A stretch of DNA of 33,854 nt from Thiotrichaceae bacterium (GTDB lineage: Bacteria; Pseudomonadota; Gammaproteobacteria; Thiotrichales; Thiotrichaceae), in NCBI GenBank assembly GCA_027030285.1, contig JALVFC010000169.1, forward strand, positions 1-33,854. Reading direction: 5' to 3'. Made by a program: the position numbers and the translations under genes. Below the pieces are notes generated by a model that saw nothing but the letters and a program-made list of their open reading frames with translations, did not search any database and was not told the origin of the DNA. Positions 6,928-33,854 of this stretch are shown one piece after another (the stretch's first letter is position 1; each line of letters begins with the position of its first letter).

Positions 6928-6934
6928 GGAGTCG

Positions 6935-8929: not shown

Positions 8930-8951
8930 TACAGCAACAGGAATAGAATTT

Positions 8952-10466
8952 ATGGAAGGTTGGGCATTACTAAGTCTTGTTATCTGGTTACCTATTATAG
9001 GTGGTCTGATAGTGCTAGTTGCAGGCGATAAGCTGTCACGCCCGGCTGCGCTCATCTTTTCTGTTATAACATTCCTGGTGAGTATTCCTTTGTGGACGGG
9101 ATTTGATCCAACTTCCTATCAGATGCAATTTGAAGAAAAGCACACCTGGATCAGTAGTTTTAATATGTTTTATCATCTGGGGGTTGATGGTATTTCCATG
9201 CCGTTACTGCTACTGAATACCTTTATTACGGTACTCATTGTTATTGCTGGCTGGGAAGTAATTAAAAAGAAACCTGCTCAGTACATGGCTGCTTTTCTTA
9301 TCATGGAAGGGATAATTAATGGCGTGTTTGCAGCACAGGATGCCATGCTGTTTTATATATTCTTCGAAGCCATGCTGATACCCATGTTCCTGGTTATTGG
9401 CGTATGGGGCGGTGTAAATCGTGTTTATGCCACCATAAAGTTCTTCCTTTATACATTTTTTGGTTCGGTTTTCATGCTGGTTAGCCTGCTCTATATGTAT
9501 AACAAATCCGGTAGTTTTGCGATTGCAGATTTTTATAACCTGAAGTTGGGCATGACTGCTCAGGTCCTGATTTTCCTGTCTTTTCTGATAGCTTTTGGTG
9601 TCAAAGTTCCAATGTGGCCAGTGCATACCTGGTTGCCAGATGCGCACGTTGAAGCACCTACAGGTGGATCGGTCATCCTGGCGGCAATTATGTTAAAAAT
9701 TGGTGGCTATGGTTTTTTGCGTTTTTCGCTGCCAATGGTGCCAGATGCTGCTCGTGAACTCACATGGCTAGTGGTCTTTATGTCATTAACTGCCGTTGTT
9801 TATATCGGTTTTGTCGCACTGGTGCAAAAAGATATGAAGAAGTTGGTGGCTTATTCATCTATTGCGCATATGGGGTTTGTCACGCTGGGTTTCTTTCTTG
9901 TGTATGCCATTTATCGGAATACTGGAAGTTACGAAGGTTCTGTTTTAGCCATGCAGGGTGGTATGGTGCAGATGGTCTCACATGGCTTTATCTCAGGCGC
10001 CATGTTCCTTTGTATAGGTGTACTGTATGACCGCATGCATACGCGTGAGATTTCAGCGTATGGTGGCGTAGCCAATACCATGCCTATCTTTACTGCCTTT
10101 TTTGTGTTGTTTGCCATGGCGAACACGGGTTTACCTGGAACTTCGGGATTTGTTGGTGAGTTTATGGTGATTCTGGCTAGTTTTAAGGCAAGTTTCTGGA
10201 TCGCATTTCTGGCGGCGACAACCTTGATTGTAGGTGCTGCCTATACGTTGTGGCTGGTTAAGCGTGTGTTATTTGGTGGTGTAGCAAATGAAGAGGTTGC
10301 CTTATTGCAAGATGTGAATAAACGAGAGTTTCTCTTTTTAGCAGTTTTAGCACTTGCAGTCTTGCTATTAGGTTTATGGCCACAGCCACTGACTCATGTA
10401 ATGGGAGCGAGTATTCAACATATCGTTGAACTTGCTACGCAAAGCAAACTGCCGGGAGTGAACTAA
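8952..10466 (+). CDS. nuoM: NADH-quinone oxidoreductase subunit M (antiporter-like)
   Basis: 504 aa with an ND4-like motif (VPMWPVHTWLPDAHVEAPTGGSVILAAIMLK). Confidence 0.93.
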   Translation: MEGWALLSLVIWLPIIGGLIVLVAGDKLSRPAALIFSVITFLVSIPLWTGFDPTSYQMQFEEKHTWISSFNMFYHLGVDGISMPLLLLNTFITVLIVIAGWEVIKKKPAQYMAAFLIMEGIINGVFAAQDAMLFYIFFEAMLIPMFLVIGVWGGVNRVYATIKFFLYTFFGSVFMLVSLLYMYNKSGSFAIADFYNLKLGMTAQVLIFLSFLIAFGVKVPMWPVHTWLPDAHVEAPTGGSVILAAIMLKIGGYGFLRFSLPMVPDAARELTWLVVFMSLTAVVYIGFVALVQKDMKKLVAYSSIAHMGFVTLGFFLVYAIYRNTGSYEGSVLAMQGGMVQMVSHGFISGAMFLCIGVLYDRMHTREISAYGGVANTMPIFTAFFVLFAMANTGLPGTSGFVGEFMVILASFKASFWIAFLAATTLIVGAAYTLWLVKRVLFGGVANEEVALLQDVNKREFLFLAVLALAVLLLGLWPQPLTHVMGASIQHIVELATQSKLPGVN

Positions 10467-18607: not shown

Positions 18608-18655
18608 TTGATTCCGACTATTATTCGTAGTGTGAAATAACATTCGGAGGAAATT

Positions 18656-19126
18656 ATGAATATCACCGCAACTTTATTCGGACAAGTGATCGTTTTCACG
18701 CTCCTGATATTGTTCATCAAGCGTTTCCTGTGGGAACCTATTCTGAATACCATGGAAGATCGCAAGGCACGTATTGCCGAAGGTCTTGCTGCATCAGAAA
18801 AAGGTGCTGAGGATGCGCGTCTGGCAGAAGAGCGAGCCGTTGAGATTTTACGTGATGCCAAGAATCAGGCAGCTGAAATAGTGGCACAGGGTAAAGCTCG
18901 CGAAGCTCAAATTGTTGAAGAAGCCAAAGACAAGGCGATTGAAGAAGCCAATCGCATTAAGGCGGCGACTGAAGCGGAACTAGAACAAGAAGTCATTCGT
19001 GCTAAAGATAGCCTGCGCACCCAGGTATCAGAATTAGCCGTTGCCGGAGCGAGTAAAATCCTCGGCAAGGAAATTGACGCCAAGACGCATAAAAGTGTCC
19101 TGGATGAACTTGTTGCAAAGATCTAG
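18656..19126 (+). CDS. atpF: F0F1 ATP synthase subunit b
   Basis: 156 aa with one N-terminal TM segment followed by a long charged A/E/K-rich helix. Confidence 0.9.
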   Translation: MNITATLFGQVIVFTLLILFIKRFLWEPILNTMEDRKARIAEGLAASEKGAEDARLAEERAVEILRDAKNQAAEIVAQGKAREAQIVEEAKDKAIEEANRIKAATEAELEQEVIRAKDSLRTQVSELAVAGASKILGKEIDAKTHKSVLDELVAKI

Positions 19127-19140
19127 AGGTTGTTGATTAG

Positions 19141-19677
19141 ATGTCAGAATTAACAACCACCGCCCGTCCCTATGCACGTGCTCTGTTTGAGCTGGCAAGC
19201 GATGCGAATGCGCTGACTGAATGGTCAGAGACACTCGCATTTCTAGGTGCGCTCGTTAGCAATGATGAGGTACGTGCGTTGCTCAATAACCCGGCTATGA
19301 CCAAGCAAACCGCAGCGGACGCTGTGATCAAGCTAAGTGATGGCAAGCTGGATGACAAGGCAGAAAACCTTGTAAAGCAACTGGCGGAATACGGTCGTTT
19401 GGAAGTCCTTCCTGAAATAAGTAGCTTGTTTGAAGCTATGAAAGACGAAGCGGAGAGTGTCGTTGAAGCAGTAGTGACATCAGCTCAGGAATTGAGTGAT
19501 GAAGAAAAAGATGCCATTGCAACAGCTTTGAAAAAACGCTTGGGTCGTGAAGTCAAAATCACCCCGGAGATTGATGAATCAATTTTGGGTGGTGCCATTA
19601 TTCGGGCAGGTGACTTGGTAATAGATGGTTCGATACAGGGCAGGTTGAAAAATATTCAGCATGCACTGGTCGGCTAA
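19141..19677 (+). CDS. atpH: F0F1 ATP synthase subunit delta
   Basis: 178 aa with an OSCP/delta-like N-terminus (ARPYARALFELA) and C-terminus (IDESILGGAIIRAGDLVIDGSIQGRL). Confidence 0.92.
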   Translation: MSELTTTARPYARALFELASDANALTEWSETLAFLGALVSNDEVRALLNNPAMTKQTAADAVIKLSDGKLDDKAENLVKQLAEYGRLEVLPEISSLFEAMKDEAESVVEAVVTSAQELSDEEKDAIATALKKRLGREVKITPEIDESILGGAIIRAGDLVIDGSIQGRLKNIQHALVG

Positions 19678-19690
19678 GAGGATTAATTAA

Positions 19691-21232
19691 ATGCAGTTAA
19701 ATCCAACTGAAATTAGTGAAATAATCAAGAAGCGAATTGAAAGCTTCGATGTAGAAGCAGAAGCACGTACTGAAGGTACGCTGGTTTCTGTGGGTGACGG
19801 TATTGTACGTATCCACGGTTTGGGCGATGTCATGTCAGGTGAGATGATCGAGTTCTCAAACGGGGCATTCGGACTGGCACTGAACCTTGAACGTGACTCT
19901 GTAGGTGCCGTTGTACTGGGCGATTACAAGAGCCTGAAAGAAGGTGATACTGCCAAGTGTACCGGACGTATTCTGGAAACACCTGTTGGACCTGGTTTGC
20001 TGGGACGTGTCGTTGATTCACTGGGTCAGCCTATTGATGGTAAAGGTCCCGTTGAGAATGACGGCTTTGCTCCACTTGAGCGTCAGGCACCGGGCGTTAT
20101 TGAACGCCAATCGGTGGATGAGCCTATGGAAACAGGTATCAAGGCACTGGACTCCATGGTTCCTGTAGGTCGCGGACAGCGGGAGTTGATCATTGGTGAC
20201 CGCCAGACTGGTAAGACCGCTGTTGGTATCGACGCGATCATTAACCAGAAAGGCAAAGACGTACAGTGTATTTATGTAGCTGTTGGTCAGAAAGCTTCTT
20301 CCGTGGCAGGCGTGGTACGCAAGCTGGAAGAACACGGCGCCATGGACTATACCATCGTGGTTGCCGCAAATGCATCAGATCCTGCTTCCATGCAGTTCCT
20401 GGCGCCTTATGCGGGTTGTGCCATGGGTGAGTACTTCCGTGATCGTGGTCAGGATGCCTTAATTATTTATGATGACCTGACCAAGCAAGCATGGGCCTAT
20501 CGTCAGGTGTCACTGTTACTGCGTCGTCCTCCTGGACGTGAAGCATATCCTGGTGATGTCTTCTTCCTGCACTCGCGTTTACTGGAGCGTGCTGCTCGTG
20601 TTAATGCTGATTTTGTTGAGAAAATGACTAACGGTGAAGTCAAGGGAAAAACAGGTTCCCTGACAGCCTATCCAATTATCGAGACTCAGGAAGGTGACGT
20701 ATCTGCCTTCGTACCTACCAACGTAATTTCGATTACAGACGGGCAGATATTCCTCGATACTGACCTGTTTAACTCAGGTACCCGACCAGCGATTGATGCA
20801 GGTCTGTCGGTATCTCGTGTGGGTGGTTCAGCACAAACCAAGATCATCAAGAAGCTCGGTGGTGGTATTCGTCTTGACCTGGCGCAATATCGTGAACTGG
20901 CAGCATTCTCGCAGTTTGCATCTGATCTGGATGAGGCAACTCGTGCTCAGTTAGAGCGTGGTGAGCGTGTTACACAGCTTATGAAACAGCCGCAGTATTC
21001 ACCTCTGAAAACAGCTGAACTGGCATTCTCATTGTTCTCGGCTAACGAAGGCTATCTGGATGATATCCCAGTCAACAAAATCAATGATTTTGAAGCTGCC
21101 ATGTTGAGCTATGTGCGCAGTGAAAAGGCTGACCTGCTGGATAGTATCAACGAGTCAGGTGACTATAACGATGATATCGCCAGTCAAATGCGTGCCGCTC
21201 TGGATGATTTCAAAGCGAATCATAGCTGGTAA
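19691..21232 (+). CDS. atpA: F0F1 ATP synthase subunit alpha
   Basis: 513 aa with Walker A GDRQTGKT and typical alpha-subunit sequence throughout. Confidence 0.97.
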
Positions 21233-21256
21233 CCGTTGACTTGAGAGGTAAGCCCC

Positions 21257-22114
21257 GTGGGTCTTAAAGAAATACGCACACAGATCAAGAGTATCCAAAG
21301 CACGAAAAAGATTACCAAAGCCATGGAAATGGTGGCGGCATCGAAAATGCGTCGCGCAGCGGAACGTATGCAGGCTTCCAGGCCTTACGCACAGAAAATG
21401 CGTGAGGTAGTCAGTCATATGGCAAAGGGACATCTGGAGTACAAACATCCCTATACGCTGGAGCGCGAAGACGTTAAACGTGTTGGCTATATCATTATTT
21501 CAACTGACCGTGGTTTATGTGGCGGTTTAAACACCAATCTGTTCAAAAAGGCCTTTCAGGAAATAGCTGACTGGAAAGAGCAGGGGGTGGAAGTGGATAT
21601 CGCCGTCTACGGTGGCAAAGCACTGAACGCATTCAAGCGTTATGGTGTAGTTGCCGAGGCGACAGGTTTGGGCGACCGACCTGAGCTGGCGGATATGATT
21701 GGCCCTATCAAGGTAATGCTGGATGCTTATGATGAAGGCAAAATTGACCGTCTGATTATGGTCGAGAACGAATTCATTAATAACATGACGCAGAAGCCAC
21801 GTTCGACGCAGCTTGTCCCTATCGTTTCAGAAGAGCTGGAAGAGCTGGATTATCACTGGGACTACCTTTATGAGCCAGACTCAAAGGAAGTCATTGATGC
21901 CCTTATGCAGCGCTACATTGAGTCCCTGATCTATCAGGGTGTTGTCGAAAACGTAGCCTGTGAAATGTCATCCCGCATGATTGCCATGAAAAGTGCTACT
22001 GACAATGCTGGCAGCATGATTGACAAGCTACAGCTGGTTTACAACAAGGCGCGTCAGGCAGCGATTACACAAGAGATATCCGAGATAGTGGCAGGCGCAG
22101 CAGCGGTTGAATAA
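21257..22114 (+). CDS. atpG: F0F1 ATP synthase subunit gamma
   Basis: 285 aa with a GTG start, [31 protein letters not shown] at the N-terminus, and C-terminal [17 protein letters not shown]. Confidence 0.95.
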
Positions 22115-23527
<1,413 letters not shown>

Positions 23528-23554
23528 AAACCCAGGTTAAACCAGGAGAAAAAA

Positions 23555-23983
23555 ATGGCTATGACAATGCATCTAAACGTAGTAAGTGCAGAAGAAGAAC
23601 TCTTCTCCGGAACGGTAGAAGAAGTCTTCGCACCGGGAACCATGGGTGATCTGGGTATCATCCCCCGGCACGCGCAACTCGTTACCACGTTAAAACCAGG
23701 CGAGCTACGCTACGTCGCAGACGGTCATATGGCAGCTCTGTTTGTATCAGGCGGCATTATGGAGGTACAGCCTCATGTCGTTACGGTGCTTGCAGATACC
23801 GCCATAAGAGCTGATGATCTGGATGAAAAAGCCGCTACAGAGGCAAAGGAAAGAGCAGAAGCAGCGCTGGAAGGAAAAGATCCTGAAGATCTTGACTACG
23901 AAGCGTTACAAGCTGAGCTTGAAGCAGCCAAGGCGCAGATCCAGATGATACACAACATAGGAAAGACACTGGGAAGACACTAA
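23555..23983 (+). CDS. atpC: F0F1 ATP synthase subunit epsilon
   Basis: 142 aa with an epsilon-like N-terminal beta domain (LNVVSAEEELFSG) and a helical A/E-rich C-terminus. Confidence 0.92.
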   Translation: MAMTMHLNVVSAEEELFSGTVEEVFAPGTMGDLGIIPRHAQLVTTLKPGELRYVADGHMAALFVSGGIMEVQPHVVTVLADTAIRADDLDEKAATEAKERAEAALEGKDPEDLDYEALQAELEAAKAQIQMIHNIGKTLGRH

Positions 23984-24012
23984 ACAAAGTTTATTTCTGA
24001 TGTTTTGTCTGA

Positions 24013-24041
24013 GGGCAGCCAATTGGCTGCCCTTTTGTTTT
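24013..24041 (+). terminator. Rho-independent terminator of the atp operon
   Basis: Stem gggcagcc / ggctgccc (8 bp) with loop aatt, followed by ttttgtttt. Confidence 0.85.
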
Positions 24042-24087
24042 ACAATGTATTACTGTTTAGCAGAGTGTTGATATACCAAGGTCGCCC

Positions 24088-24684
24088 ATGAGTAACAAAA
24101 ATGACAAATCCATTTGGGAACAACGTTATCAAGAAGGCACAACAGGCTGGGATCGTGGCAAGGCAAGCCCAAATTTATCTACCTGGCTGGAGCAGGGCGA
24201 CCTGCAACCCTGCCGGATACTCATCCCCGGTTGTGGCAATGGCTATGAAATACTGGAACTGGCAAGCCGTGGATTCGAAGTCGTTGCAGTAGATATTGCA
24301 GCTTCTCCCATTCGCAATGCAAAAAAGATGCTCCAGGCAAACCACCTGCAAGCTGAACTCATAGAAAGTGACCTGTTTGCCCTGGATTTTCGCAATACCC
24401 CTTTTGATGCAATTTACGAGCAAACATGCCTTTGTGCACTTGAGCCCACAGACTGGCAGGCTTACGAACAGTGGCTCTATGACTCATTGAAAGAAAAAGG
24501 AAAACTTTACGCACATTTTCTGCAGAATGGCAGAGAAGGCGGGCCTCCTTATCATTGCGATATGACAGCCATGAAAGACCTATTCGACAAAACCCGCTGG
24601 ACATGGGAAAAGGCACTCAAACCAACCCCCATGAGTACATTAACCAATGCACAGGAAAGCCCCTTTTTGCTAATAAGACAATAA
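24088..24684 (+). CDS. SAM-dependent methyltransferase, thiopurine/halide-thiol methyltransferase (TPMT) family
   Basis: 198 aa. N-terminal W-x2-RY-x-EG-x2-GWD and the SAM motif ILIPGCGNGYE...G..VVAVDI fit the TPMT-family pattern as I remember it. Confidence 0.65.
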   Translation: MSNKNDKSIWEQRYQEGTTGWDRGKASPNLSTWLEQGDLQPCRILIPGCGNGYEILELASRGFEVVAVDIAASPIRNAKKMLQANHLQAELIESDLFALDFRNTPFDAIYEQTCLCALEPTDWQAYEQWLYDSLKEKGKLYAHFLQNGREGGPPYHCDMTAMKDLFDKTRWTWEKALKPTPMSTLTNAQESPFLLIRQ

Positions 24685-24698
24685 CCGTATAAAAAGCT

Positions 24699-26822
24699 AT
24701 GTCTCACTTCAAAGCCCCAGGCAACCCGCAGCCACCGCAGGCTGAAAAACACCCACACCAACAGGAACATCATGGTTTCAAGACCATAGACAACTACCAC
24801 TGGCTACGCGCAGACAACTGGCAACAAGCCATGCGTGAACCAGATAAACTGCCCACAGCCATCAAAAACTACCTGCAAGCAGAAAATGACTATTTCAAAG
24901 CCTGCATGAAAGATACCGAAACGCTACAAAAACAGCTTATTGCAGAAATGCGCGCCCGCATCAAGGAAGACGACACCAGCGTACCAGAAAAACACGGCGA
25001 CTATGCCTACCAAACCCGCTATACAGAAGGTGCAGAGCACCCCGTTTATATCCGCACAGCCAGAGAAGCAGGCGATGATGCAGACGAAGAAGTCTTACTG
25101 GATGTCAATGAAGAAGCACAACACGAAGACTATTTCGAACTGGGGCAAGTTACCGTAAGCCCACAACATAACATGCTGGCATGGAGTTCTGACACCAATG
25201 GCGCAGAATATTTCACTCTGAAAATACGCGACCTCGACACGGGGGATGACCTGCCATACGTCATCAACGATGTCGGCTCAGTGGCATGGATCAACGAATC
25301 CAGCTTGCTGTATACCAAAGTGGACAAGCACCACCGACCCAATAAAGTCTATCGTCACCAACTGGCAAACGATGCTGAAGATGAACTCATCATGGAAGAA
25401 ACGGACACCCGTTTTTATATGGCAGTCGGCCGCTTACTAAGCGGAGAATATGTCGCCATCCGGATAGCCATGAATGATCAGAATGAAACCTGGGTACTGC
25501 CAACCCAGCAGCCCGATGCGACACCACAACTGATACAAGCCCGCCAGGAAGGACTGGAATACGATATCGAGCAACAAGGCGAGCAATTTATCATACTTAC
25601 CAACGCCGATGGTGCTGAAGACTTTAAAATCGTCACCGCACCCGTAGCAGCCCCACAAAAAGCCAACTGGAAAGACATAGTCCCACATCAACAAGGGCGG
25701 ATGATTATCGACCTCGAAGTGTATCAGGACTGGCTCATCTGGATGGAAAGAGAAAATGCCCTGCCAGCCATAAAAATCCGTCATATCAACGACAAACCCG
25801 GCAATGAAAAAAGCATCCAGTTTACCGAAGAAGCCTACTCACTGGGCATCCATCCCTCACGGGAATACCACAGCAACAGCCTGCGTTTCAGCTACTCATC
25901 ACCAACCACCCCAACCCAGATTTATGACTACGATCTGCAAAATGACCAGCGCGAATTACGCAAGCAAACCGAAATACCATCTGGTCATAACCCACACGAC
26001 TACATAACACGACGACTAACCGCCATCAGCCACGATGGTGCAGAAGTCCCCATAACCATATTGTACCACCAGTCAACCCCAATAGACGGCACAGCACCCT
26101 GCCTGCTCTACGGCTACGGCTCCTATGGCTCATCCATCCCTGCCGCATTCTCCAGCAACCGACTATCACTGGTAGACCGAGGCTTTATCTACGCCATCGC
26201 GCACGTCAGAGGCGGACAGGAAAAAGGTCGGGCCTGGTATGAAGCAGCCAAAAAAGCAGGCAAACCCAATACCTTCAACGACTTTATCGCCGTAGCAGAA
26301 CACCTCATACAAAACAACTACACACAGCCAGACAAAATAGTCTGCCAAGGTGGTTCAGCCGGAGGTCTACTCATTGGCGCAGTCATAAACATGCGCCCAG
26401 ACCTGTTCGCTGGAGCCATTGCCGATGTCCCCTTTGTAGACATGCTCAACACAATACTCGATGACAGCCTGCCACTCACCCCCGGGGAATGGTCACAATG
26501 GGGCAACCCGATCGAAAGCAAACAAGCCTATGAATGGATCGCCAGCTACTCACCCTACGACAACGTCAGCGCACAGGCATACCCCGCCATACTGGTCACC
26601 GCAGGCGTATCCGACCCCAGAGTCACCTACTGGGAACCCGCCAAATGGGTCGCCAAACTGCGTGAACTAAAAACAGATGACAACATACTACTACTAAAAA
26701 CCAACATGACCTCAGGGCACTTCGGCACCTCAGGACGATTCGCCATGCTGGAAGATGTCGCAGAAGCATATACTTTTGCCCTGCACGCAACAGACAACCA
26801 ACCCAAAGGAGAAAGCGAGTAG
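24699..26822 (+). CDS. ptrB: Oligopeptidase B / protease II (S9A prolyl-oligopeptidase family serine peptidase)
   Basis: 707 aa. N-terminal HG-x4-DNYHWLRAD, nucleophile motif GGSAGGLL, DPRV..WEPAKWVAKLR and a GHFG His region are present. Size and order match oligopeptidase B. Confidence 0.85.
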   Translation: MSHFKAPGNPQPPQAEKHPHQQEHHGFKTIDNYHWLRADNWQQAMREPDKLPTAIKNYLQAENDYFKACMKDTETLQKQLIAEMRARIKEDDTSVPEKHGDYAYQTRYTEGAEHPVYIRTAREAGDDADEEVLLDVNEEAQHEDYFELGQVTVSPQHNMLAWSSDTNGAEYFTLKIRDLDTGDDLPYVINDVGSVAWINESSLLYTKVDKHHRPNKVYRHQLANDAEDELIMEETDTRFYMAVGRLLSGEYVAIRIAMNDQNETWVLPTQQPDATPQLIQARQEGLEYDIEQQGEQFIILTNADGAEDFKIVTAPVAAPQKANWKDIVPHQQGRMIIDLEVYQDWLIWMERENALPAIKIRHINDKPGNEKSIQFTEEAYSLGIHPSREYHSNSLRFSYSSPTTPTQIYDYDLQNDQRELRKQTEIPSGHNPHDYITRRLTAISHDGAEVPITILYHQSTPIDGTAPCLLYGYGSYGSSIPAAFSSNRLSLVDRGFIYAIAHVRGGQEKGRAWYEAAKKAGKPNTFNDFIAVAEHLIQNNYTQPDKIVCQGGSAGGLLIGAVINMRPDLFAGAIADVPFVDMLNTILDDSLPLTPGEWSQWGNPIESKQAYEWIASYSPYDNVSAQAYPAILVTAGVSDPRVTYWEPAKWVAKLRELKTDDNILLLKTNMTSGHFGTSGRFAMLEDVAEAYTFALHATDNQPKGESE

Positions 26823-26906: not shown

Positions 26907-27311
26907 ATGACACAACAACCAGAAACCATCGCCAAACAATGGCTGGAAGCATCCGCCCAAACAGCAACCAGCAAACAATTTGAAGAACACTTCAACCTGA
27001 TCTCAAAACGGGTACAGGTAAAAGGCGTACCAGGATTCGAAAGCATCAGCTACAACGACTGGGCACGACAATGCGAGCAAGAATTCAAGGAAAATGTACT
27101 CGAGCGAGTCAGCTATGAAGGCTTACTCATCACCGCTTACAATGACAAACAAATCATGTTCAAAACACTAGAATCCGTATTCGCCACAGACGGCACCAAA
27201 AAAACACATGGCGTAGAAATAGTACTGGAAAAAGAACAGGACGGCGTATGGCGAGTCATCCAGGAGCGCATCATGCCCGACGATGAAAGCCGACATGCAG
27301 GGCTACTATAA
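26907..27311 (+). CDS. Small hypothetical protein, probably NTF2-like/SnoaL-like fold
   Basis: 134 aa, soluble. The pattern (A..W...........F..........G.......W.......F......V.Y.......DGVWRV) resembles NTF2-like/DUF4440 proteins. Weak, pattern-only call. Confidence 0.4.
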   Translation: MTQQPETIAKQWLEASAQTATSKQFEEHFNLISKRVQVKGVPGFESISYNDWARQCEQEFKENVLERVSYEGLLITAYNDKQIMFKTLESVFATDGTKKTHGVEIVLEKEQDGVWRVIQERIMPDDESRHAGLL

Positions 27312-27336
27312 AAAGAGAAGAAGGGGTATGATAAAT

Positions 27337-27468
27337 CTACATAAAAAACAACTTATTAGGAGGGATTCTCACTCCATCCGTCCCCTGTTTCAGAATATTC
27401 GCATAGATCTCAGTCGTCTTAACATCCGCATGCCCTAACTGCTACTGAGCCGTACGGATATCCCCCCC
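27337..27468 (-). pseudogene. Remnant of an integron-integrase-like tyrosine recombinase (C-terminal ~40 codons only, with an in-frame TAG)
   Basis: The minus-strand frame reads GGDIRTAQ*QLGHADVKTTEIYANILKQGTDGVRIPPNKLFFM*. This matches recombinase box II with the catalytic Tyr and an IntI-type tail (..HVL..G..GV.SP..). Similarity is lost upstream of a C8 run at 27462-27469. No upstream ORF. Confidence 0.7.
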
Positions 27469-27585
27469 CGCTGTGCGGATCCATCGACAGCTGATGTGAC
27501 CTGAAATGTTATTTAGGGCACTTATGATGGTTAGCTGCCTTCTTTTTTGTGAAAAATTTGGGCAACTATTCGAATAGGGCTCGGT

Positions 27586-27714
27586 ATCTAGGAGGCTGTC
27601 CGAGAGCTAAGTTTTTCAAAATTTCAATCAATATATAGTAGTTTAAGTTATCAAAAGAGCGCTATATGTTGTTTATTTGTTTTTAAAAGCTAGTCATCAG
27701 ACAGCCTCCTAGAT
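27586..27714. repeat. Perfect 15-bp inverted repeat pair flanking a 99-bp AT-rich core
   Basis: atctaggaggctgtc (27586-27600) and gacagcctcctagat (27700-27714) are exact reverse complements. No ORF lies inside and no obvious target-site duplication is present. Confidence 0.6.
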
Positions 27715-27830
27715 AAGGAGTCAGGATTGGAGTTTCCTTTTTAGCTACAAGTTTGAAAAGGTAGAATCATTCAAGTGACTTCTTAAAGAAGTCTGGGCAA
27801 ATCAGCATGACGACTAAAATATAACCAATA

Positions 27831-27898
27831 TTATTTTTGGGCTAAACAGACCAAAAATAACTTGATTCTGGTTCTTTTTGGGTTTACTATCCCAAAAA
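27831..27898. promoter_or_regulatory. Two related palindromic operator-like sites (TTTTTGG-N-CCAAAAA) flanking or overlapping the putative promoter of the HTH gene
   Basis: Site 1 is ttatttttgg-N10-ccaaaaataa (27831-27860). Site 2 is tttttggg-N8-cccaaaaa (27875-27898). Both share the half-site TTTTTGG. Confidence 0.4.
27862..27890 (+). promoter_or_regulatory. Candidate sigma70-type promoter (TTGATT-N17-TACTAT)
   Basis: -35 ttgatt at 27862-27867, a 17-nt spacer, -10 tactat at 27885-27890. The ATG at 27899 lies 9 nt past the -10 with no Shine-Dalgarno, which suggests a leaderless or near-leaderless mRNA. Confidence 0.4.
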
Positions 27899-28717
27899 AT
27901 GAAAACGTCGCTTTCAAATGCTATCTACTCTGTACTAAAGCCGCTTATCTCACTGATGAGTCGGGAGTGTATTGCTTTTGGTGATTTTTCCAGTTTGGCA
28001 AAACAAGCGTTTATTCATGTGACAGAGCAGGAGTTACTAGCTTCGGGGCAAAAAGCAACGACTTCTCGTATCGCCATTATTACAGGGCTGACGCGCAAGG
28101 AAGTAGCAGCACTACGCAAGCAAAAGGTCCCACAACAGGAACAGGATTTCCATCAGAACCGTGCCGTCCGGGTGATTAGTGGCTGGATGGGAGATGATGA
28201 TTTTCGGGATACCCGGGGGGAGCCTAAACCACTCGTCCTGCAAGGTAAAACTGATAGCTTTGAGGCATTGGTTGCCCGGCATAGCGGGGATATTCCCTAT
28301 CGGGCCATGATCAATGAGCTAATACGCATTGGTGCCGCAGAGTTGCTGGAAGATGGCAGGGTTGCACTGGTACGGGCGGTTTATATTCCGTCTGGTACCG
28401 AGTCAGGAAAGTATGACTTGCTGGGCGAGGATGTTGCATTGTTAATTGAGACGATTAAACACAATATCCAGCACCCGGATGACCCGCGCTACCAGCGCAA
28501 GGTTTGTTACGACAAGGTTCCCCGGAAATATGTCGAGGCATTCAAAACGTTTGCCAACAGGGAAAACCAGGCGCTGATTATGAAGCTGAATGCCTGGCTG
28601 GCAGCACATGATATGGACAAGCAGTCAGATATTGAGGGTGAGCATCCCACCCGGCTGGGTGTGGGCGTGTACTATTTTGAAGGTAGCCGCAAGATGGATG
28701 AAACGGATAACGGATAA
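27899..28717 (+). CDS. Hypothetical protein with an N-terminal helix-turn-helix-like segment (possibly the family annotated DUF6502; from memory, unverified)
   Basis: 272 aa from the ATG at 27899. The track's 27878 TTG start is less likely. HTH-like segment TSRIAIITGLTRKEVAALRK. No TM segments. A 6-nt gap separates it from the next gene. Confidence 0.6.
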   Translation: MKTSLSNAIYSVLKPLISLMSRECIAFGDFSSLAKQAFIHVTEQELLASGQKATTSRIAIITGLTRKEVAALRKQKVPQQEQDFHQNRAVRVISGWMGDDDFRDTRGEPKPLVLQGKTDSFEALVARHSGDIPYRAMINELIRIGAAELLEDGRVALVRAVYIPSGTESGKYDLLGEDVALLIETIKHNIQHPDDPRYQRKVCYDKVPRKYVEAFKTFANRENQALIMKLNAWLAAHDMDKQSDIEGEHPTRLGVGVYYFEGSRKMDETDNG

Positions 28718-28723
28718 GGAAAC

Positions 28724-29980
28724 ATGAAGAAATACCTGAACAAGCAAATCATTCTGGTTGCGGCTGCACTACAGCTTATTGTGTTGCTGCTTACTGTACT
28801 GCTGCTGTTATCCGCCTGTAACAATTCCAGTGTTACCGTGGCTAATGGGGGTGTTACTGGAACAGGCATCACTATGGGGCGTATTACCAATTTTGGCAGC
28901 GTATTCGTGAACGGTGTGCGTTTTGATGTGGATGGTGCCGAGTTTTTGCGGAACGATCAGCCCGCCACACAGGGACAAGCTGATTTTAGTGTGGGTGAGT
29001 TTGTTGTCATTAAAGGCAGTATCGGAGCGGATAGCAGTGAAGGTGTTGCCATACAGGTGGCTTATAGCGATGCACTGAATGGTGAGATCACACGCGCCAG
29101 TACCGATGGACAGTCCCTGGAAGTATTAGGGCAACTGGTACATACCGATGCCCTAACCGTGTTTCATGGCTTTACGGATCTCACGGAGCTGGATGCCGGG
29201 AATCTGCTTGAAGTATCAGGGGTATTGGGCACTAATGGACATATTGTCGCCACGCTGATCAAAAAGGGAGCGTTACAGTTTGATTCAGGCGTGTCACGTA
29301 ACCGTCTGCGTGGGCGTATTGCCAATATTGATACAGACCAGCAACAGTTTGAGCTGGGTGGCTTGCTTATCGACTATGCGAGTGCGGATCTGCTGAATTA
29401 TGAAGGCCATGAAATTCATAATGACCAGTATATTGAGGTTGCTAGTGATACGGCTGTTACAAACTACCAACTCACCGCCTCTACAGTCAAATTCATTAAC
29501 GAAACACATGATTTATCAGATCATCACTCTGCTAATATTGAAGGGTTGGTTAACCAATTTACCTCAATCAGTAATTTTCAGGTCAATGGCTTGCTAGTGA
29601 CCACGACACCCTCAACACGCTATCAAAATGGTAACGTCAACCGTATTACGGAAAATGCCTATCTCAGGCTGACTGGCACCATCCATGAATCGGGGGTGCT
29701 GGTTGCGGACAGGATCACTTTCCAAGTCCCGCAGAATGTGATTGAGCAAGAAGGTATGGTGCAATCGGTTGATCTGGAGAACAGCGAAGTTCGCATTTTA
29801 AACCGTACGATTGTGGTTAATACATCCACACTGATGATTGATGAAAACAACCATAGTGCACTACCCTTTACTCTGGCTGACTTGCACTCCGGAGATAGGA
29901 TAAAGGTCAGCGGTATTGCCCTGAACGACGGCAAACTACTGGCTTATCGACTGGAGAAAAAAGTTTTGCACCATAACTGA
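28724..29980 (+). CDS. Lipoprotein built from five tandem ~60-65-aa beta-domain repeats (DUF5666-like pattern)
   Basis: Signal peptide with lipobox LLSAC. The five modules start GRITNFGSVFVNGVRF, GEITRASTDGQSLEVLG, GRIANIDTDQQQFELGG, GLVNQFTSISNFQVNG and GMVQSVDLENSEVRILN. Each is followed by L..G..[VL][EK]V.G. Confidence 0.7.
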   Translation: MKKYLNKQIILVAAALQLIVLLLTVLLLLSACNNSSVTVANGGVTGTGITMGRITNFGSVFVNGVRFDVDGAEFLRNDQPATQGQADFSVGEFVVIKGSIGADSSEGVAIQVAYSDALNGEITRASTDGQSLEVLGQLVHTDALTVFHGFTDLTELDAGNLLEVSGVLGTNGHIVATLIKKGALQFDSGVSRNRLRGRIANIDTDQQQFELGGLLIDYASADLLNYEGHEIHNDQYIEVASDTAVTNYQLTASTVKFINETHDLSDHHSANIEGLVNQFTSISNFQVNGLLVTTTPSTRYQNGNVNRITENAYLRLTGTIHESGVLVADRITFQVPQNVIEQEGMVQSVDLENSEVRILNRTIVVNTSTLMIDENNHSALPFTLADLHSGDRIKVSGIALNDGKLLAYRLEKKVLHHN

Positions 29981-30022
29981 CTTCAATACAGGGCGTAGAT
30001 TTAGGGGCTTTAGGGGCTGAAG

Positions 30023-30081
30023 TGACCCGATGCGGCAACATCGGGTCAGCAAACTGCTTACCGGACAGGTAAACAACTTGG
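30023..30081 (+). repeat. Intergenic hairpin-plus-box motif, copy 1
   Basis: 10-bp stem tgacccgatg / catcgggtca with loop cggcaa (30023-30048). After a 20-nt spacer comes the box caggtaaacaacttgg (30066-30081). Confidence 0.6.
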
Positions 30082-30214
30082 CATGTGCAGTATAACACTT
30101 TTTCAATCCTTTAAATGAGATCATTAACCGGCGTTATAACAGGAGGTACACATACAGACACAGATCAGATACAGATAATTATACATGAACAGGGTACACA
30201 CCCGAATAGAAAAC

Positions 30215-30250
30215 CCCGGTGCGGCAACATCGGGCAGATAAACAATTTGG
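30215..30250 (+). repeat. Intergenic hairpin-plus-box motif, copy 2 (just upstream of the propeller gene RBS)
   Basis: Stem cccggtg / catcggg (one G-U pair) with the same loop cggcaa. tgcggcaacatcggg (30220-30234) is 15/15 identical to 30031-30045. The box cagataaacaatttgg (30235-30250) is 14/16 identical to copy 1. Confidence 0.6.
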
Positions 30251-30270
30251 TAATTTTTAGGAAACAAATC

Positions 30271-31599
30271 ATGACATTGAATACATTACTCAAGTCTCTG
30301 ACGCTGGCAGGGATATTGGCAACACTGACCGCTTGTGGCGGTTCATCCAGCAATACATCGACACCCACCGGGAAGCTAACCACCTTTTACGGTGATATCA
30401 CAAACCAGCGTATTGTTGGTATTGATGTGGAAAGCATGACACTGACCAGTGACACCCCCACGAATGGCCTAAAGCCATATACAGTAGGCCGGGCAGATGG
30501 TCGCAATGGTACGCTTAACAAGCTATACGGGGTGACTCGCAATTCACCCTGGCTGGAAATCATTGATATGACCACGCGCGAAATTACTGGCACTATCCAA
30601 CTGCAACATACACCGCGTTCCTGCGCCTATAATGAAATTCTGGGGTTGCAACTGGTGAGTGGTGTGGATAAACCCATGGCTTCCCTGATTGATCCACAAA
30701 CTGATGAAGTGGTTGCCACAGTGGGTAGAAACACACTGGTTACACCGACAGATTTCGGTGGTTCTAATGCAACCGGACACCCTGTCTGGCTGACCGCTGA
30801 TATCTTCGCCATACTGGATCGGGAAGTTCGCAAGATAGATTTGTACAGGGTATCTCAGGTTAATGGTGTCTGGGAGGCTAACTTCCTCAGTTCACTGGAT
30901 ACGCCAACCTCTGCTCATCACTTTATTGGTAAAGGCTTTGATGGTATGGATACCGGTATTTCACTGACAGACACGCCAACAGATACATTCTATGTGGTAG
31001 CAGAAGGCTCCCCTGCCGACAATATTCCGCCTGCTATTCTGGAGTTAAAACTGGCCAATGATCAACTGACCATCAACCGTTCTGTCAGTTTTGATCATGC
31101 TGCTACCCAGGCAGCTCACGATGATCCTAATTTTGATCCAGCCGCAGAAACAGATGTAGCGACAGGTGGGCATCATGCCACCCTTCATCCCAATGGCAGG
31201 GACATATATGTAGGATCCAGAATAGGTGAAATGTTAATTGTAAATACCCAAACCATGCAAATTGCCCATGCCATACCAACAGGGGAAGGTAGTGGCCATA
31301 CAACCTTTGTGCCGCAACGTAATCTGGCGATTGTTACTAATCATAATGCACCGTTTATTTCGGTTATTAACACGACAACAGGGCACAAGATTAAAGATAT
31401 AACTATCAGTGGTCCTTCCATGAATAATGTCATCATGCAATCACATACCAGTTTCACCGATGCCAATGGTGACTTCTTTTATGCCTTTGCTTCAAACAAT
31501 GGCATCTTTTACGAGGTGGATCTGTCGACGTTGAGTGTATCTCGTACTCTGGATACGGGAGGTACTCCGGTACAGGGCTGCTTTACTTACTTGCAATAA
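30271..31599 (+). CDS. Beta-propeller lipoprotein (YVTN / cd1-like repeat pattern)
   Basis: 442 aa from the ATG at 30271, with Shine-Dalgarno aggaaa 7 nt upstream. Signal peptide plus lipobox LTAC-GGSSS. Repeated hP.G..iYV......l.Vi...T...i..I strands, e.g. LHPNGRDIYVGSRIGEMLIVNTQTMQIAHAIP. The 52-codon upstream extension in the track has no support. Confidence 0.7.
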   Translation: MTLNTLLKSLTLAGILATLTACGGSSSNTSTPTGKLTTFYGDITNQRIVGIDVESMTLTSDTPTNGLKPYTVGRADGRNGTLNKLYGVTRNSPWLEIIDMTTREITGTIQLQHTPRSCAYNEILGLQLVSGVDKPMASLIDPQTDEVVATVGRNTLVTPTDFGGSNATGHPVWLTADIFAILDREVRKIDLYRVSQVNGVWEANFLSSLDTPTSAHHFIGKGFDGMDTGISLTDTPTDTFYVVAEGSPADNIPPAILELKLANDQLTINRSVSFDHAATQAAHDDPNFDPAAETDVATGGHHATLHPNGRDIYVGSRIGEMLIVNTQTMQIAHAIPTGEGSGHTTFVPQRNLAIVTNHNAPFISVINTTTGHKIKDITISGPSMNNVIMQSHTSFTDANGDFFYAFASNNGIFYEVDLSTLSVSRTLDTGGTPVQGCFTYLQ

Positions 31600-31614
31600 G
31601 AAGAAGCTAGGGCT

Positions 31615-31645
31615 GGAACCCTGTCAGCGTATTTGACAGGGTTTC
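31615..31645 (+). terminator. Weak terminator/attenuator hairpin after the propeller gene
   Basis: Stem ggaaccctgtc / gacagggtttc (9 perfect bp, extended by a G-U pair and a G-C pair) with a 9-nt loop. It is followed by only a short T stretch. Confidence 0.35.
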
Positions 31646-31685
31646 AGGTATAAGCCACCGGTAAAGATTGGCGGGTTTATTTTAT

Positions 31686-32012
31686 ATGTTACATAAAATC
31701 GTACTTACACTGCTTCTACTTAACATTTTGCTTTTTCCTGTAGCGAGCCTGAGCCAGCTCCAGTCCTCAGAGGGGCAGGAAGCCGAGAATGGTATCACTA
31801 TTGCACTACATACCCATGTGGTGAGTTCAGATGATGAGTGTTGTGTACTCCAGTGTGTGAACTGTTCTTGTACCTGTACGCAACTGGTTCTCACTCTGGA
31901 TTTTTTTATTCCTGTTATAGCCGCCCTTCAAAACAAGGGCTTTTATCAGAAAAAACAGGCTGCTTTTGTCAGTCTTAATCACCTCCCCGAAGTACCGCCT
32001 CCTCTCATCTAA
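31686..32012 (+). CDS. Small Cys-rich membrane/secreted protein (signal or TM segment, HTH His pair, CCx3Cx2CxCxC cluster, second hydrophobic segment, PPP tail)
   Basis: 108 aa from the ATG at 31686: MLHKIVLTLLLLNILLFPVASLSQ...HTHVVSSDDECCVLQCVNCSCTCTQLVLTLDFFIPVIAAL...LPEVPPPLI. It is a real-looking ORF in an operon-like position, but no family assignment is possible by eye. Confidence 0.5.
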   Translation: MLHKIVLTLLLLNILLFPVASLSQLQSSEGQEAENGITIALHTHVVSSDDECCVLQCVNCSCTCTQLVLTLDFFIPVIAALQNKGFYQKKQAAFVSLNHLPEVPPPLI

Positions 32013-32163
32013 TCATCCTTCTATTTCCGCATTTTGATTGGTCAGTGCCCTATGGGTAAATAGGTAGATAGATTTCACAAGGTGTTATCTGCACTGCGCG
32101 CAAATCAATTCTTAATATTCTTCCGGGACAGGGCAACCCCCCCGGATAAAGGATGAGATCAAT

Positions 32164-32736
32164 ATGGAGCAAATTACAACCAAAGACCCAGGCGTTTTTT
32201 TATCTACGATGCACGTTAAGGCATTGGCTTACGTGACTGTCCGGCTCAAGGATACCGAGTTAGCTCAGGATATAGTGCAAGATACAATGATAGGTTTTGT
32301 CCGCTCAGCACATCACTATGAGAACCGTGCATGGAGGAACCTGTTTTACAAAATTCTGAAACGCAGGATCATTGACTACGTAAGAAAGGAGCAATGGAGA
32401 AAACAGTTACGAGCAGCGTGGATGCCTCCTGACGCTACCGGGTTGGAAGGAGAGTCTGATGAAGGTGAGAGCCACTCCTGTAATCCAGACAGTACCGGGA
32501 AAAGTATTTCGTATGATACTGCTCAGTCTTATTTGAATGTCATTGAAATGATAGAGCAACTCGACGTTATTTTGTTAGCACTGCCTGAACGACAGCAAGA
32601 GGCTTATGAGCTTCGTAACTTGCAAGGTTATTCAATAAAAGAAGTCGCCAGGATGATGAGTTGTTCAGAAAGTAGTGTAAAGTCACTTACCTATAGGGCA
32701 TTGAAAGCTCTGCGGAAGCAGTTGGGCTGTCCATAA
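32164..32736 (+). CDS. ECF-type RNA polymerase sigma-70 family factor
   Basis: 190 aa. Region 2 ELAQDIVQDTMIGFVR...W..LFYKILKRRIIDYVRKE. Region 4 HTH LPERQQEAYELRNLQGYSIKEVARMMSCSESSVKSLTYRALKALRKQL. Confidence 0.85.
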   Translation: MEQITTKDPGVFLSTMHVKALAYVTVRLKDTELAQDIVQDTMIGFVRSAHHYENRAWRNLFYKILKRRIIDYVRKEQWRKQLRAAWMPPDATGLEGESDEGESHSCNPDSTGKSISYDTAQSYLNVIEMIEQLDVILLALPERQQEAYELRNLQGYSIKEVARMMSCSESSVKSLTYRALKALRKQLGCP

Positions 32737-33010
32737 CATACAAAGAAGCCTAAAAGTGCCGTGTTGGCCTTCCTTCGTCAGTATCAATTAGCTTTGTAGA
32801 GAACGTTAGAATGCCATCTTAACCTTTAAGGTGGTGGGTATGTAATGGTCAGGTTACGTCCTATTCGATTTGGTTTAGGATGAGGCACGAGAGTGTTCAG
32901 TATATAAGTACAAACGAATGTTTTGTATGTATTTGTTGGGCGAAATAAGGGTAAGCTGATGTAGCTTATGTGGATATGTTCTATTTGGATGCCAATTAAA
33001 CATAAGCTCT

Positions 33011-33042
33011 AAAAGAGGCAGGTAGCATGCACTACCTGCCTC
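33011..33042 (-). terminator. Rho-independent terminator of the multicopper oxidase gene
   Basis: The minus strand reads gaggcaggtag-tgcatg-ctacctgcctc (11-bp stem, 6-nt loop) followed by tttt. Confidence 0.75.
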
Positions 33043-33091
33043 CTGGGGCTATTGGTTGACTGGTTGAGTAAACCCAGCGTGATTCATTCCA

Positions 33092-33854
33092 CTATTTGTT
33101 GTTTTCCGTGTTTCCTGAATTGCCGCTATTCATGCCACCTGAAGCGTTCCCACCAACGTTAATGACCGCTGCTCCCGTTGTGACAGCAAACTGTCCCATC
33201 ATACCATCATCTTCATGTTCCAGAAAATGGCAGTGATACATATAACCAGTATTGTCATCCGTGAAATCTGTCATCTTCACAATGAATTTAACCGTATCTC
33301 GCGGTGCCAAGCGAATGGTGTCTTTATAGCCTTTTTCGCTTTGCGTAATATTTGCCGGGCTGCCATTCCTTTCCAGAGGGTAGAAGTGTGTCGCATGAAT
33401 ATGAAAGTTATGCTCCATTCCCATCATATTGACTACTTCCCATACTTCTATGTCATTGACCGGTACGAATTCATCAATACGGTTAATATCCATCAGTTTC
33501 CCATTAATCGCCATATGCATTGCGCCATCTTCACCTCGTGCCATATTAAGCACAAATCTACGGGTTCTAACGGCTGATGCAGGTGAGTATTTTTCCAGTG
33601 TAGTGAGTTGTGCAGGTACTACTGAGGTAATAGAACTGGTTTGGTTAATATTAACCTTCATAATATCCAGGCCAGAGTTTGCGTCTTGCAGGATTACGCT
33701 GTTGCCAAGATCATTCGTGAAGTCAACCACAATTTCTGCTCTCTCACCGGGGCTTAGCACCACAGAAGAAAGTGTTACTGGTGTCTCAAGGAAAGAGTTG
33801 TCCGTTGCTATCTGCTGGAAACTTCTGCTATCAGAAAATTGTACCTTGTAAACA
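33092..33854 (-). CDS. Multicopper oxidase, CueO-like, C-terminal part (5' end outside the window)
   Basis: C-terminal copper-ligand motif YMYHCHFLEHEDDGMMGQF, plus MGMEHNFHIHATHF. The reading frame stays open from 33763 to the window edge (VYKVQFSDSRSFQQIATDNSFLETPVTLSS-VVLSPGERAEIVVDF), so the track's 33763 start is internal. Confidence 0.85.
   Translation of the reverse strand, partial: VYKVQFSDSRSFQQIATDNSFLETPVTLSSVVLSPGERAEIVVDFTNDLGNSVILQDANSGLDIMKVNINQTSSITSVVPAQLTTLEKYSPASAVRTRRFVLNMARGEDGAMHMAINGKLMDINRIDEFVPVNDIEVWEVVNMMGMEHNFHIHATHFYPLERNGSPANITQSEKGYKDTIRLAPRDTVKFIVKMTDFTDDNTGYMYHCHFLEHEDDGMMGQFAVTTGAAVINVGGNASGGMNSGNSGNTENNK

Follow-up and report, generated by a model that had tools for sequence, protein, structure and literature searches.

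Contig JALVFC010000169.1 of a Thiotrichaceae bacterium (assembly GCA_027030285.1) carries, within the 33,854-nt stretch analyzed here in full (hereafter the window), five plus-strand genes for a DUF6502 protein, a lipoprotein built of DUF5666 repeats, a beta-propeller lipoprotein, a small Cys-rich protein and an extracytoplasmic function (ECF) sigma factor, which converge on a multicopper oxidase (MCO) gene. An earlier reading made from the letters alone (the sequence-only reading) had placed the five open reading frames (ORFs), the convergent MCO gene and a recombinase remnant where we find them, and had presented the cluster as a candidate system. We slightly favor another view, in which three independent modules make up a mosaic specific to this lineage and, together with the MCO gene, form a neighborhood for periplasmic metal stress, the metal most likely being copper. 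The observation is confirmed and the earlier interpretation is partly supported; we describe the region as an ECF-associated metal-stress neighborhood holding several uncharacterized families. A further-reaching, joint proposal is doubtful: DUF6502 would be a new family of HetR-like transcription factors with a phylum-spanning operator, extending to fcc genes in Thiothrix relatives; the Cys-rich protein, the ECF sigma factor and a lipoprotein MCO would form a new copper-sensing route; and the propeller, with its poly-His hub, would be a new periplasmic metalloprotein. The DUF6502, DUF5666 and propeller families and a seven-member Cys-rich family, all without a described function, now have concrete hypotheses attached to them, for which an operator, a promoter motif, a ring of histidines and a set of partner genes serve as handles.

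Conservation of the five-gene block

Co-occurrence was assessed in 80 loci drawn from GTDB, where each species was represented by a single genome and scanned with an alignment of DUF6502; the loci were taken with 10-kb flanks, and their neighboring genes were scored by tblastn with the window proteins. A DUF5666 gene adjoins DUF6502 in 77 of the 80 loci, whereas the propeller, Cys-rich, ECF and MCO genes are found only in L001, a sister strain from the same species-level lineage as the window, and in L002, which is the same organism (99.9% identity) as L082, a metagenome contig found independently through its propeller gene. All five genes stand together in two related lineages only, which are 67-73% identical at the nucleotide level. 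The proposal that the five genes make up one system does not survive this comparison, nor does neighborhood conservation uphold it, the propeller and the Cys-rich/ECF pair each having their own, different neighbors elsewhere.

The DNA shared by the window and L001 comprises 27815-32730 (92% nucleotide identity) and the end of the MCO gene; the left flanks are wholly different. None of the five ORFs is disrupted, and their products are 91-97% identical between the two strains. To the left of the block L001 carries genes for a 121-aa His/Cys-rich protein and an 816-aa P-type ATPase (6871-9783), and it has a gene for a 267-aa cation-efflux (CDF) protein between the ECF and MCO genes (14977-15780). 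In L082 the order is Cys-rich, ECF, an oppositely oriented MCO remnant of 35 aa, DUF6502, DUF5666 and propeller. Linkage in two lineages only, combined with this permuted order, points to a block that has moved and been reshuffled, not to a widely conserved operon. The case carries a caution: a neat row of genes on one strand can have come together recently, and this one is kept in two related lineages only.

The alternative of the sequence-only reading, in which the five genes act as one ECF-controlled envelope unit for the sensing or handling of a periplasmic metal, appears unlikely on this evidence. It can draw on the retention of the whole block in L001 despite a wholly different left flank, on the metal-transport genes that flank the entire block in that strain, on the contiguity of the same five genes, in permuted order, in L082/L002, and on a hairpin with compensatory changes that both lineages retain between the DUF5666 and propeller genes. 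However, the two lineages are related and one of them was sampled twice (as L002 and L082), the other 77 DUF6502 loci lack all three remaining genes, and the propeller and the Cys-rich/ECF pair are never accompanied elsewhere by DUF6502 or DUF5666. Regulatory signals do not join the genes either: a strict form of the DUF6502 operator has a single occurrence in the window, which is at the DUF6502 promoter, and genes 1-3 have no ECF promoter motif upstream. A functional link among the three modules that is local to these lineages is likewise judged improbable.

The DUF6502/DUF5666 pair and its palindrome

Genes 1 and 2 are separated by 6 nt, a spacing that the ORF coordinates had already given. 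The product of gene 1 matches DUF6502 over its full length (227.9 bits, with a Pfam gathering cutoff of 27 bits; residues 4-263 align with positions 3-264 of the 268 in the profile) and no other Pfam family at E<=1. The product of gene 2 matches DUF5666 (PF18914) with 124.5 bits in four stretches, and an iterated hidden Markov model (HMM) resolves five repeats (residues 52-103, 120-180, 197-256, 274-331 and 344-410), which bears out the five tandem repeats described previously for this lipoprotein. Its lipobox LSAC, like the lipobox of the propeller and the signal-like N-terminal segment of gene 4, was read directly from the translation. The earlier statement that the first four products could not be assigned holds for gene 4, which matches no known family in Pfam or NCBIfam, but not for genes 1 and 2, which belong to named DUF families, or for gene 3, which is a YVTN-type propeller. 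Hosts of the pair include Thiotrichales, Thiodiazotropha, Ectothiorhodospiraceae, Nitrospirota, Desulfobulbia and one planctomycete (Planctomycetota). Literature searches returned no paper that mentions DUF6502 and found DUF5666 in tables only, and a PDB sequence search for DUF5666 gave nothing useful.

A palindrome of 20 bp with the consensus TTTGGGAATAwwTTCCCAAA lies upstream of DUF6502 start codons. In the form TTGGGA-N6-TCCCAA it is found no more than 120 nt from the start in 49 of the 80 loci, and in about 20 further loci it lies 160-260 nt upstream or before a DUF5666 gene that precedes DUF6502. The 1.34 Mb searched contain about 95 distinct sites, most of them at this operon, against about 6 expected by chance (an arithmetic expectation under equal base frequencies). 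In the Nitrospirota loci the center of the palindrome reads TATAAT, with a TTGACA spaced 17 nt ahead of it. The Thiotrichales palindromes reach to within 0-8 nt of the ATG, an arrangement that points to a leaderless transcript. The window itself has a degenerate copy at 27834-27857 and a second copy (operator 2, TTTTTGGG-TTTACTAT-CCCAAAAA, 27875-27898) that abuts the ATG and is centered on the -10-like hexamer TACTAT (27885-27890), 17 nt after TTGATT (27862-27867), so that its DUF6502 mRNA would be leaderless or nearly so. The strict pattern TTGGG-N6-10-CCCAA has a single match in the 34-kb window, inside operator 2, and a search of the window for extra DUF6502 operators found none that would tie genes 3-5 to DUF6502. 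We regard the palindrome as a candidate autoregulatory operator of DUF6502.

The AlphaFold2 (AF2) model of the DUF6502 protein has a predicted local distance difference test score (pLDDT) of 77, and residues 31-70 and 91-160 average above 90. HetR, the cyanobacterial heterocyst transcription factor, provides the top PDB matches of this model in Foldseek: HetR-DNA complexes align over the full length (E 8e-4, probability 1.0), with winged-helix repressors next. Beyond this alignment, the likeness extends to a size of about 270-300 aa and an N-terminal helix-turn-helix (HTH), and to the DNA site, since HetR binds a palindrome with G/C tracts (titles of 4hri and 4yrv) and a GGG...CCC palindrome stands ahead of DUF6502 genes. 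Structure prediction for gene 1 thus places HetR-DNA complexes on top, but at a template modeling (TM) score of only 0.33; DUF6502 further differs from HetR in the lack of a sequence match, in its taxa and in its lipoprotein partner. DUF6502 is accordingly described here as a predicted DNA-binding regulator with HetR-like architecture. Since the protein models as a HetR-like DNA-binding protein and the palindrome lies over the operon promoter, DUF6502 and DUF5666 are probably an autoregulated pair. In the mechanism that we propose for module A (27834-29980), a dimeric HTH regulator would bind the 20-bp palindrome over the -10 box of its own promoter and would thereby control both itself and, as its main target, the cotranscribed DUF5666 lipoprotein, the whole being a self-contained cassette of many sulfur-cycling bacteria. 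If DUF6502 does bind its palindrome, it would offer a tractable HetR-like fold outside the cyanobacteria, a setting for which the literature search found no paper on HetR-like proteins.

A rival explanation, which we consider possible though not probable, makes DUF6502/DUF5666 a sulfur metabolism pair, one a regulator and the other a periplasmic component, tied to flavocytochrome c sulfide dehydrogenase, that reached its present neighbors by an accident of rearrangement. The family is concentrated in sulfur-cycling taxa, and in about 25 loci of Thiothrix, Cocleimonas, Leucothrix and Thiolinea the pair is directly followed by genes for an FccA-like cytochrome c and an FccB-like flavoprotein with a twin-arginine translocation (TAT) signal; this adjacency is limited to one order, however, and may be inherited synteny, and the window has no fcc genes. 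Two such loci (L015 and L018) have extra operator copies 50-60 nt ahead of the cytochrome c gene, and a second, paralogous pair (47% identical) occupies another locus, without metal-related genes, in the same metagenome-assembled genome as L001 (L014, WFWY01000072). In Thiodiazotropha, by contrast, the pair sits between gatCAB and mreBCD. Finally, a protein with DUF5666, not necessarily an orthologue, ranks in the 20 most abundant of the thiosulfate-disproportionating Dissulfuribacter (PMC13490349). For module A, these associations hint at sulfur more than at metal.

Two side observations concern the surroundings of the family. The fcc-type loci (L003-L031, L044, L061, L065 and L075) have their fcc genes at offsets of about +2.3 to +4 kb relative to the start of DUF6502, and a divergent gene for a membrane LuxR-type HTH protein precedes the pair. 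L082 carries a second DUF6502 paralogue that is followed not by DUF5666 but by a gene for a 674-aa multihaem cytochrome with a Big_9/cadherin domain (1228-4196); such a cytochrome gene stands directly upstream of the Cys-rich/ECF pair both in L082 and in L109 (159-2189).

Modules with a likely metal link: the propeller and the Cys-rich/ECF/MCO genes

The guess that the cluster serves periplasmic copper or another metal is supported for three of the five genes (propeller, Cys-rich and ECF) and for the MCO gene, where it draws on neighboring genes and a shared motif, and lapses for DUF6502/DUF5666, which has no metal link of its own. For the former, the metal inference follows from repeated and independent guilt by association, and the link between the ECF and MCO genes follows from a shared promoter motif.

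That gene 3 encodes a propeller lipoprotein is upheld by its YVTN-type repeats, its lipobox LTAC and its AF2 model (pLDDT 87, predicted TM score 0.85), which has 31 strands in eight blades. The family is unusually well conserved: homologs that are 45-80% identical occur in vent Gammaproteobacteria and in Campylobacterota (e.g. Sulfurovum and Sulfurimonas). Across 25 diverse sequences, His 170, 216, 217, 301, 302, 343, 358 and 392 are invariant and His 113 is nearly so; all but His 358 fall at the starts of the innermost strands of blades 2-7, as read from the DSSP string of the model, where they would line the central channel. The nearest folds in Foldseek are the d1-binding, likewise eight-bladed propellers NirF, cd1 and NirN (TM about 0.6) and the zinc chaperone AztD (TM 0.55), with TM scores of 0.55-0.63 to 6tv2, 1nir, 6rtd and 6n01. 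AztD and the d1-type propellers hold their ligand at the central channel. The propeller resembles them in its eight blades and its periplasmic or lipid-anchored location, and differs from them in its 10-15% identity, in the lack of a sequence-level match (PDB sequence searches gave generic YVTN matches only) and in its own pattern of eight invariant His that include two HH pairs. Structure prediction for gene 3 therefore delivered a confident eight-bladed propeller whose resemblance to cofactor- or metal-binding propellers is a distant one. The histidine pattern and a 13-bit match to the NCBIfam L-NosZ model had also raised the possibility of a copper-cluster propeller like that of NosZ or thiocyanate dehydrogenase, but neither protein is among the top 50 Foldseek matches, and the eight-bladed d1/AztD type is favored.

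Outside the window and its two related lineages, the propeller gene is accompanied in L083 by an OEP-CzcB-resistance-nodulation-division (RND) operon and a CDF gene, in L085/L086 by RND genes and a two-component system, and in L084 by a CopA-type ATPase gene and two-component systems, such that three of the five outside contexts place heavy-metal efflux genes beside it. The propeller is likely to bind metal in the periplasm. In module B (30271-31599), the lipid-anchored propeller would bind one or more periplasmic metal ions through a ring of invariant His at its central channel and would act as a chaperone or buffer.

Gene 4 has the features that had been ascribed to it: 108 aa, six Cys within 13 residues, a His pair (in the residues HTH) and a signal-like N-terminus. 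An exhaustive HMMER search of 1.8 billion representative proteins defines a family of seven members (106-114 aa) that share the N-terminal signal-like segment, the invariant Cys cluster and an invariant C-terminal PE[LV]PPPL; a word-indexed protein search with the Cys-rich alignment returned the queries themselves only. In every contig that is long enough, an ECF gene lies downstream of the Cys-rich gene across a spacer of about 145-160 nt. These contigs are the window, L001, L082, L089-91, L093, L094/95, L097, L108, L109 and L115, of which L097, L108, L109 and L115 were added by a metagenome scan with the sigma alignment.

The assignment of gene 5 as an ECF sigma factor is confirmed by Pfam matches to Sigma70_r2 (E 3.5e-10) and Sigma70_r4_2 (E 3.8e-16), so that only regions 2 and 4 are present, and by TIGR02937 (74.7 bits against a cutoff of 42.9). 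The best NCBIfam model is PRK09047, which scores 116 bits, below its 173-bit cutoff, and which describes ECF factors of Beta- and Gammaproteobacteria that are encoded with DUF3619 and DUF3106 proteins. The window sigma factor is 41-48% identical to those encoded after Cys-rich genes elsewhere, and these relatives keep the partner genes: on the 3' side of the sigma gene they have a gene with a weak DUF3619 match, a DUF3106 gene (E 7e-18) and a gene for a 335-aa protein, with the DUF3619/DUF3106 genes found in L089, L093, L094, L097 and L108. A tblastn search with the relatives' downstream genes found none of the three partners in the window, where 350 nt of noncoding DNA follow the sigma gene; in the literature, DUF3619 and DUF3106 appear in irrelevant papers only. 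More distant PRK09047-type members (29-31% identical; L106 and L110-L112) have the order ECF-DUF3619-DUF3106 in housekeeping contexts, and the branch considered here differs from them by the extra upstream Cys-rich gene and the association with an MCO.

The MCO gene adjoins the Cys-rich/ECF pair in five contexts, namely the window, L082 (as the 35-aa remnant), L089, L105 and L108, and in L089 MerR and CopA genes are also nearby. The source contig ends 1.1 kb past the window; the MCO gene runs off both, and its promoter lies beyond the contig. In the part available, Pfam Cu-oxidase_2 is matched on the minus-strand ORF 33092-33763 and the motif HCHxxxHxxxxM is visible in the C-terminus. CueO is the best NCBIfam model, with 85.9 bits on a fragment against a cutoff of 525 bits, a shortfall that we attribute to truncation and divergence. 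The product resembles CueO/CopA-type oxidases in its three cupredoxin domains, as far as a partial gene allows, and the relatives of the window MCO in L089 and L108, unlike CueO, are lipoproteins of 857-944 aa with long N-terminal extensions.

Promoter motifs supply the connection between the sigma and MCO genes. In about 12 loci (including L092-L102 and L115), the upstream spacer of the sigma gene contains an ECF-type motif, GTCAACC-N15/16-CGA. This motif recurs upstream of the lipoprotein MCO gene, at about 90 nt from its start in L108, just after a terminator, and at about 75 nt in L089 (motif positions about 146-172 and 3387-3415 in L089, and 7829-7857 and 11014-11042 in L108). The same motif before sigma and MCO genes in these two contigs gives in silico support to the idea that this sigma subgroup drives an MCO, and in the relatives it appears to switch one on. 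Upstream of the Cys-rich gene, L082, L089, L093 and L094 have a sigma-70-type promoter, TTGACA-N17-GAnAAT, in place of which the window has a hairpin. In module C (31686-32736 plus the MCO gene), the exported Cys-rich mini-protein would act in the periplasm as partner to the ECF factor. The subgroup of this factor would drive transcription of its own gene and of the gene for the neighboring lipoprotein MCO, which would in turn oxidize Cu(I); in the window this pathway would be stripped down. If the proposed link of Cys-rich protein, sigma factor and MCO is true, a widespread and uncharacterized ECF subgroup would for the first time have a proposed signal (copper) and an output gene.

Metal-responsive ECF systems include CnrYXH of Cupriavidus and CorE of Myxococcus, the latter with a Cys-rich C-terminal domain. 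Module C resembles CnrYXH in that an ECF gene lies among metal-resistance genes with small envelope proteins encoded upstream of it, as are cnrY and cnrX, and it resembles CorE in having a Cys-rich element that would sense metal. It differs from both in that the Cys-rich element is an exported protein of its own with a signal peptide; it neither extends the sigma factor in the cytoplasm nor has the cytoplasmic sigma-binding domain of an anti-sigma factor. The likeness is one of layout. A role for the Cys-rich protein as a zinc-binding or CnrY-like anti-sigma factor was considered and rejected in view of its signal or anchor N-terminus and of a second hydrophobic stretch that is not conserved.

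The layout of the Cys-rich protein (signal peptide, His/Cys cluster, C-terminal proline motif) is also that of CzcI-type proteins, whose clusters include DHCCH. CzcI is periplasmic and modulates CzcCBA (PMC10127602). The partner of the Cys-rich protein is a sigma factor, not an RND pump. Homology of the Cys-rich family to proteins in CzcI position is not supported by profile-profile comparison (hhalign probability 3.9%, for a comparison set chosen by gene position only, with no authentic CzcI in it). One such protein (L108, 4560-4904) is weakly matched by the Cys-rich HMM, with E 4e-4 in a small database. Exported proteins that are small and rich in His and Cys, and whose C-termini are proline-rich (RPPIH, PPHRPPKA and PLIPPPNA, for example), are encoded in L083 (314-634), L085 (3-308), L094 (4710-5021), L108 (the protein just mentioned, on the minus strand), L101 (1621-2037) and L099 (10-231). 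In L083, L085, L108 and L001, a small protein of this kind stands in the CzcI position before heavy-metal RND operons; variants precede ECF genes in L101 and L099, and the L094 copy lies downstream of the ECF gene cluster. These proteins and the 108-aa protein may belong to one broad superfamily.

The window's version of module C looks reduced: the partner genes are missing, the ECF-type promoter is degenerate and a hairpin replaces the sigma-70 promoter. These features would also fit a decaying remnant in a recombination hotspot, in which the sigma/Cys-rich signaling pair no longer functions and the genes have no tie to one another, as would the integrase pseudogene and the 59-nt inverted repeat at the left edge, the different flanks of the window and its sister strain, and the survival of only an MCO fragment in L082. 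We consider this quite improbable, as the five ORFs are intact and closely similar between the window and L001, the Cys motif and PPPL tail are invariant across the Cys-rich family, and sigma regions 2 and 4 score well.

The analysis shows which genes are present, their families and co-occurrence, the conserved motifs of operator and promoter, and predicted folds; that DUF6502 binds DNA, that the propeller and the Cys-rich protein bind metal, that copper is the signal and that the sigma factor controls the MCO of the window are deductions. The mosaic and the roles proposed for its parts have to be set against a number of contrary observations. The three modules are still adjacent in two related lineages despite rearrangement, which could mean that they work together. 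The HetR match of the DUF6502 model is weak, its low TM score going with a root-mean-square deviation of 16 Å over about 300 aligned columns, and PDB searches with the DUF6502 family profile found no HetR chain at E<=10. The histidine ring of the propeller is deduced from strand positions in the model, not from coordinates, and two of the five outside contexts of the propeller (L087 and L117) contain no metal-related genes. No anti-sigma candidate lies beside the window sigma gene, the downstream DNA being noncoding and the upstream Cys-rich protein having no cytoplasmic domain because its N-terminus is a signal or anchor. A canonical ECF promoter motif is absent from the window between 27.8 and 33.9 kb, including the DNA before genes 1-3, and the proposed control of the window MCO by the sigma factor is extrapolated from relatives that are 41-48% identical.

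Edges, hairpins and feature coordinates

At the left edge, the sequence-only reading had seen a recombinase remnant, and the minus strand there indeed encodes the C-terminal motif of a tyrosine recombinase with its catalytic Tyr, broken by an in-frame stop; we take the remnant to be IntI-like. It lies outside the shared block, because homology between the window and L001 begins only at 27815. Together with the inverted repeat next to it (Table 1), it is a possible scar of a rearrangement or mobile element. Farther left (about 18650-26822) are genes for ATP synthase subunits (beta and epsilon according to the contig record), a TPMT-type methyltransferase and a prolyl oligopeptidase (S9), an ordinary chromosomal context that is not common to L001. 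At the right edge, the terminator that had been described as facing the cluster corresponds to a hairpin that is followed by TTTT on the minus strand, a likely terminator; a consensus terminator scan missed it because the run has only four T.

Table 1. Coordinates of features in the window, with strand and supporting evidence
Feature	Position	Strand	Evidence or remark
Tyrosine recombinase C-terminal remnant, pseudogenized	27337-27501	-	translation ...GGDIRTAQ*QLGHADVKTTEIYANILKQGTDGVRIPPN
Imperfect inverted repeat of 59 nt, 71% complementary	27580-27720	.	between recombinase remnant and block
Promoter/operator of the DUF6502 operon	27834-27898	+	sequence; two palindrome copies
Predicted DNA-binding regulator of HTH type, cytoplasmic (DUF6502, 272 aa)	27899-28717	+	Pfam PF20112, E 1e-67
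Lipoprotein with five DUF5666 small beta-domain repeats	28724-29980	+	Pfam E 2e-36; lipobox LSAC
Hairpin copy 1, second small hairpin and box CAGGTAAACAACTTGG	30023-30084	+	GACCCGATG-CGGCAA-CATCGGGTC
Hairpin copy 2 and CAGATAAACAATTTGG	30215-30250	+	CCCGGTG-CGGCAA-CATCGGG, one G-U pair
YVTN-type eight-bladed beta-propeller lipoprotein	30271-31599	+	weak YVTN repeat matches; lipobox LTAC; AF2
Hairpin of 14 bp just past the propeller stop codon, without T-run	31613-31647	+	kept in L001
Exported Cys/His-rich protein, 108 aa	31686-32012	+	invariant CC-x3-C-x2-C-x-C; C-terminal PE[LV]PPPL
Degenerate counterpart of the ECF-type promoter, ATCAAT...CGGGA	32104-32131	+	spacer alignment with relatives; motif scans
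ECF sigma factor, 190 aa	32164-32736	+	Sigma70_r2, Sigma70_r4_2; nearest NCBIfam PRK09047
Likely MCO terminator, 11-bp GC-rich hairpin and TTTT	33015-33042	-	sequence
Three-domain MCO, 3' part of gene	33092-33854	-	Cu-oxidase_3, Cu-oxidase and Cu-oxidase_2 on 367-aa partial product

The spacer between the DUF5666 and propeller genes contains two hairpins with a CGGCAA loop (30026-30045 and 30215-30234), which are followed by a box with the consensus CAGrTAArCAAyTTrG. An Rfam search of 27300-33854 at E<=1 gave no match, so these hairpins are not a described RNA family, and they were found in three related sequences only (the window, L001 and L082). Processing or stability of the mRNA, or the binding of a protein, are conceivable roles. 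The G-U pair in one of the window copies works on the plus strand only. Copy 2 stands 37 nt before the propeller start codon and keeps this position in L001 and L082. The hairpins lie at about 12110 and 12292 in L001 and at 7829-7850 and 7999-8018 in L082, where both copies have compensatory stem changes (C-G to T-A; A-T to G-C).

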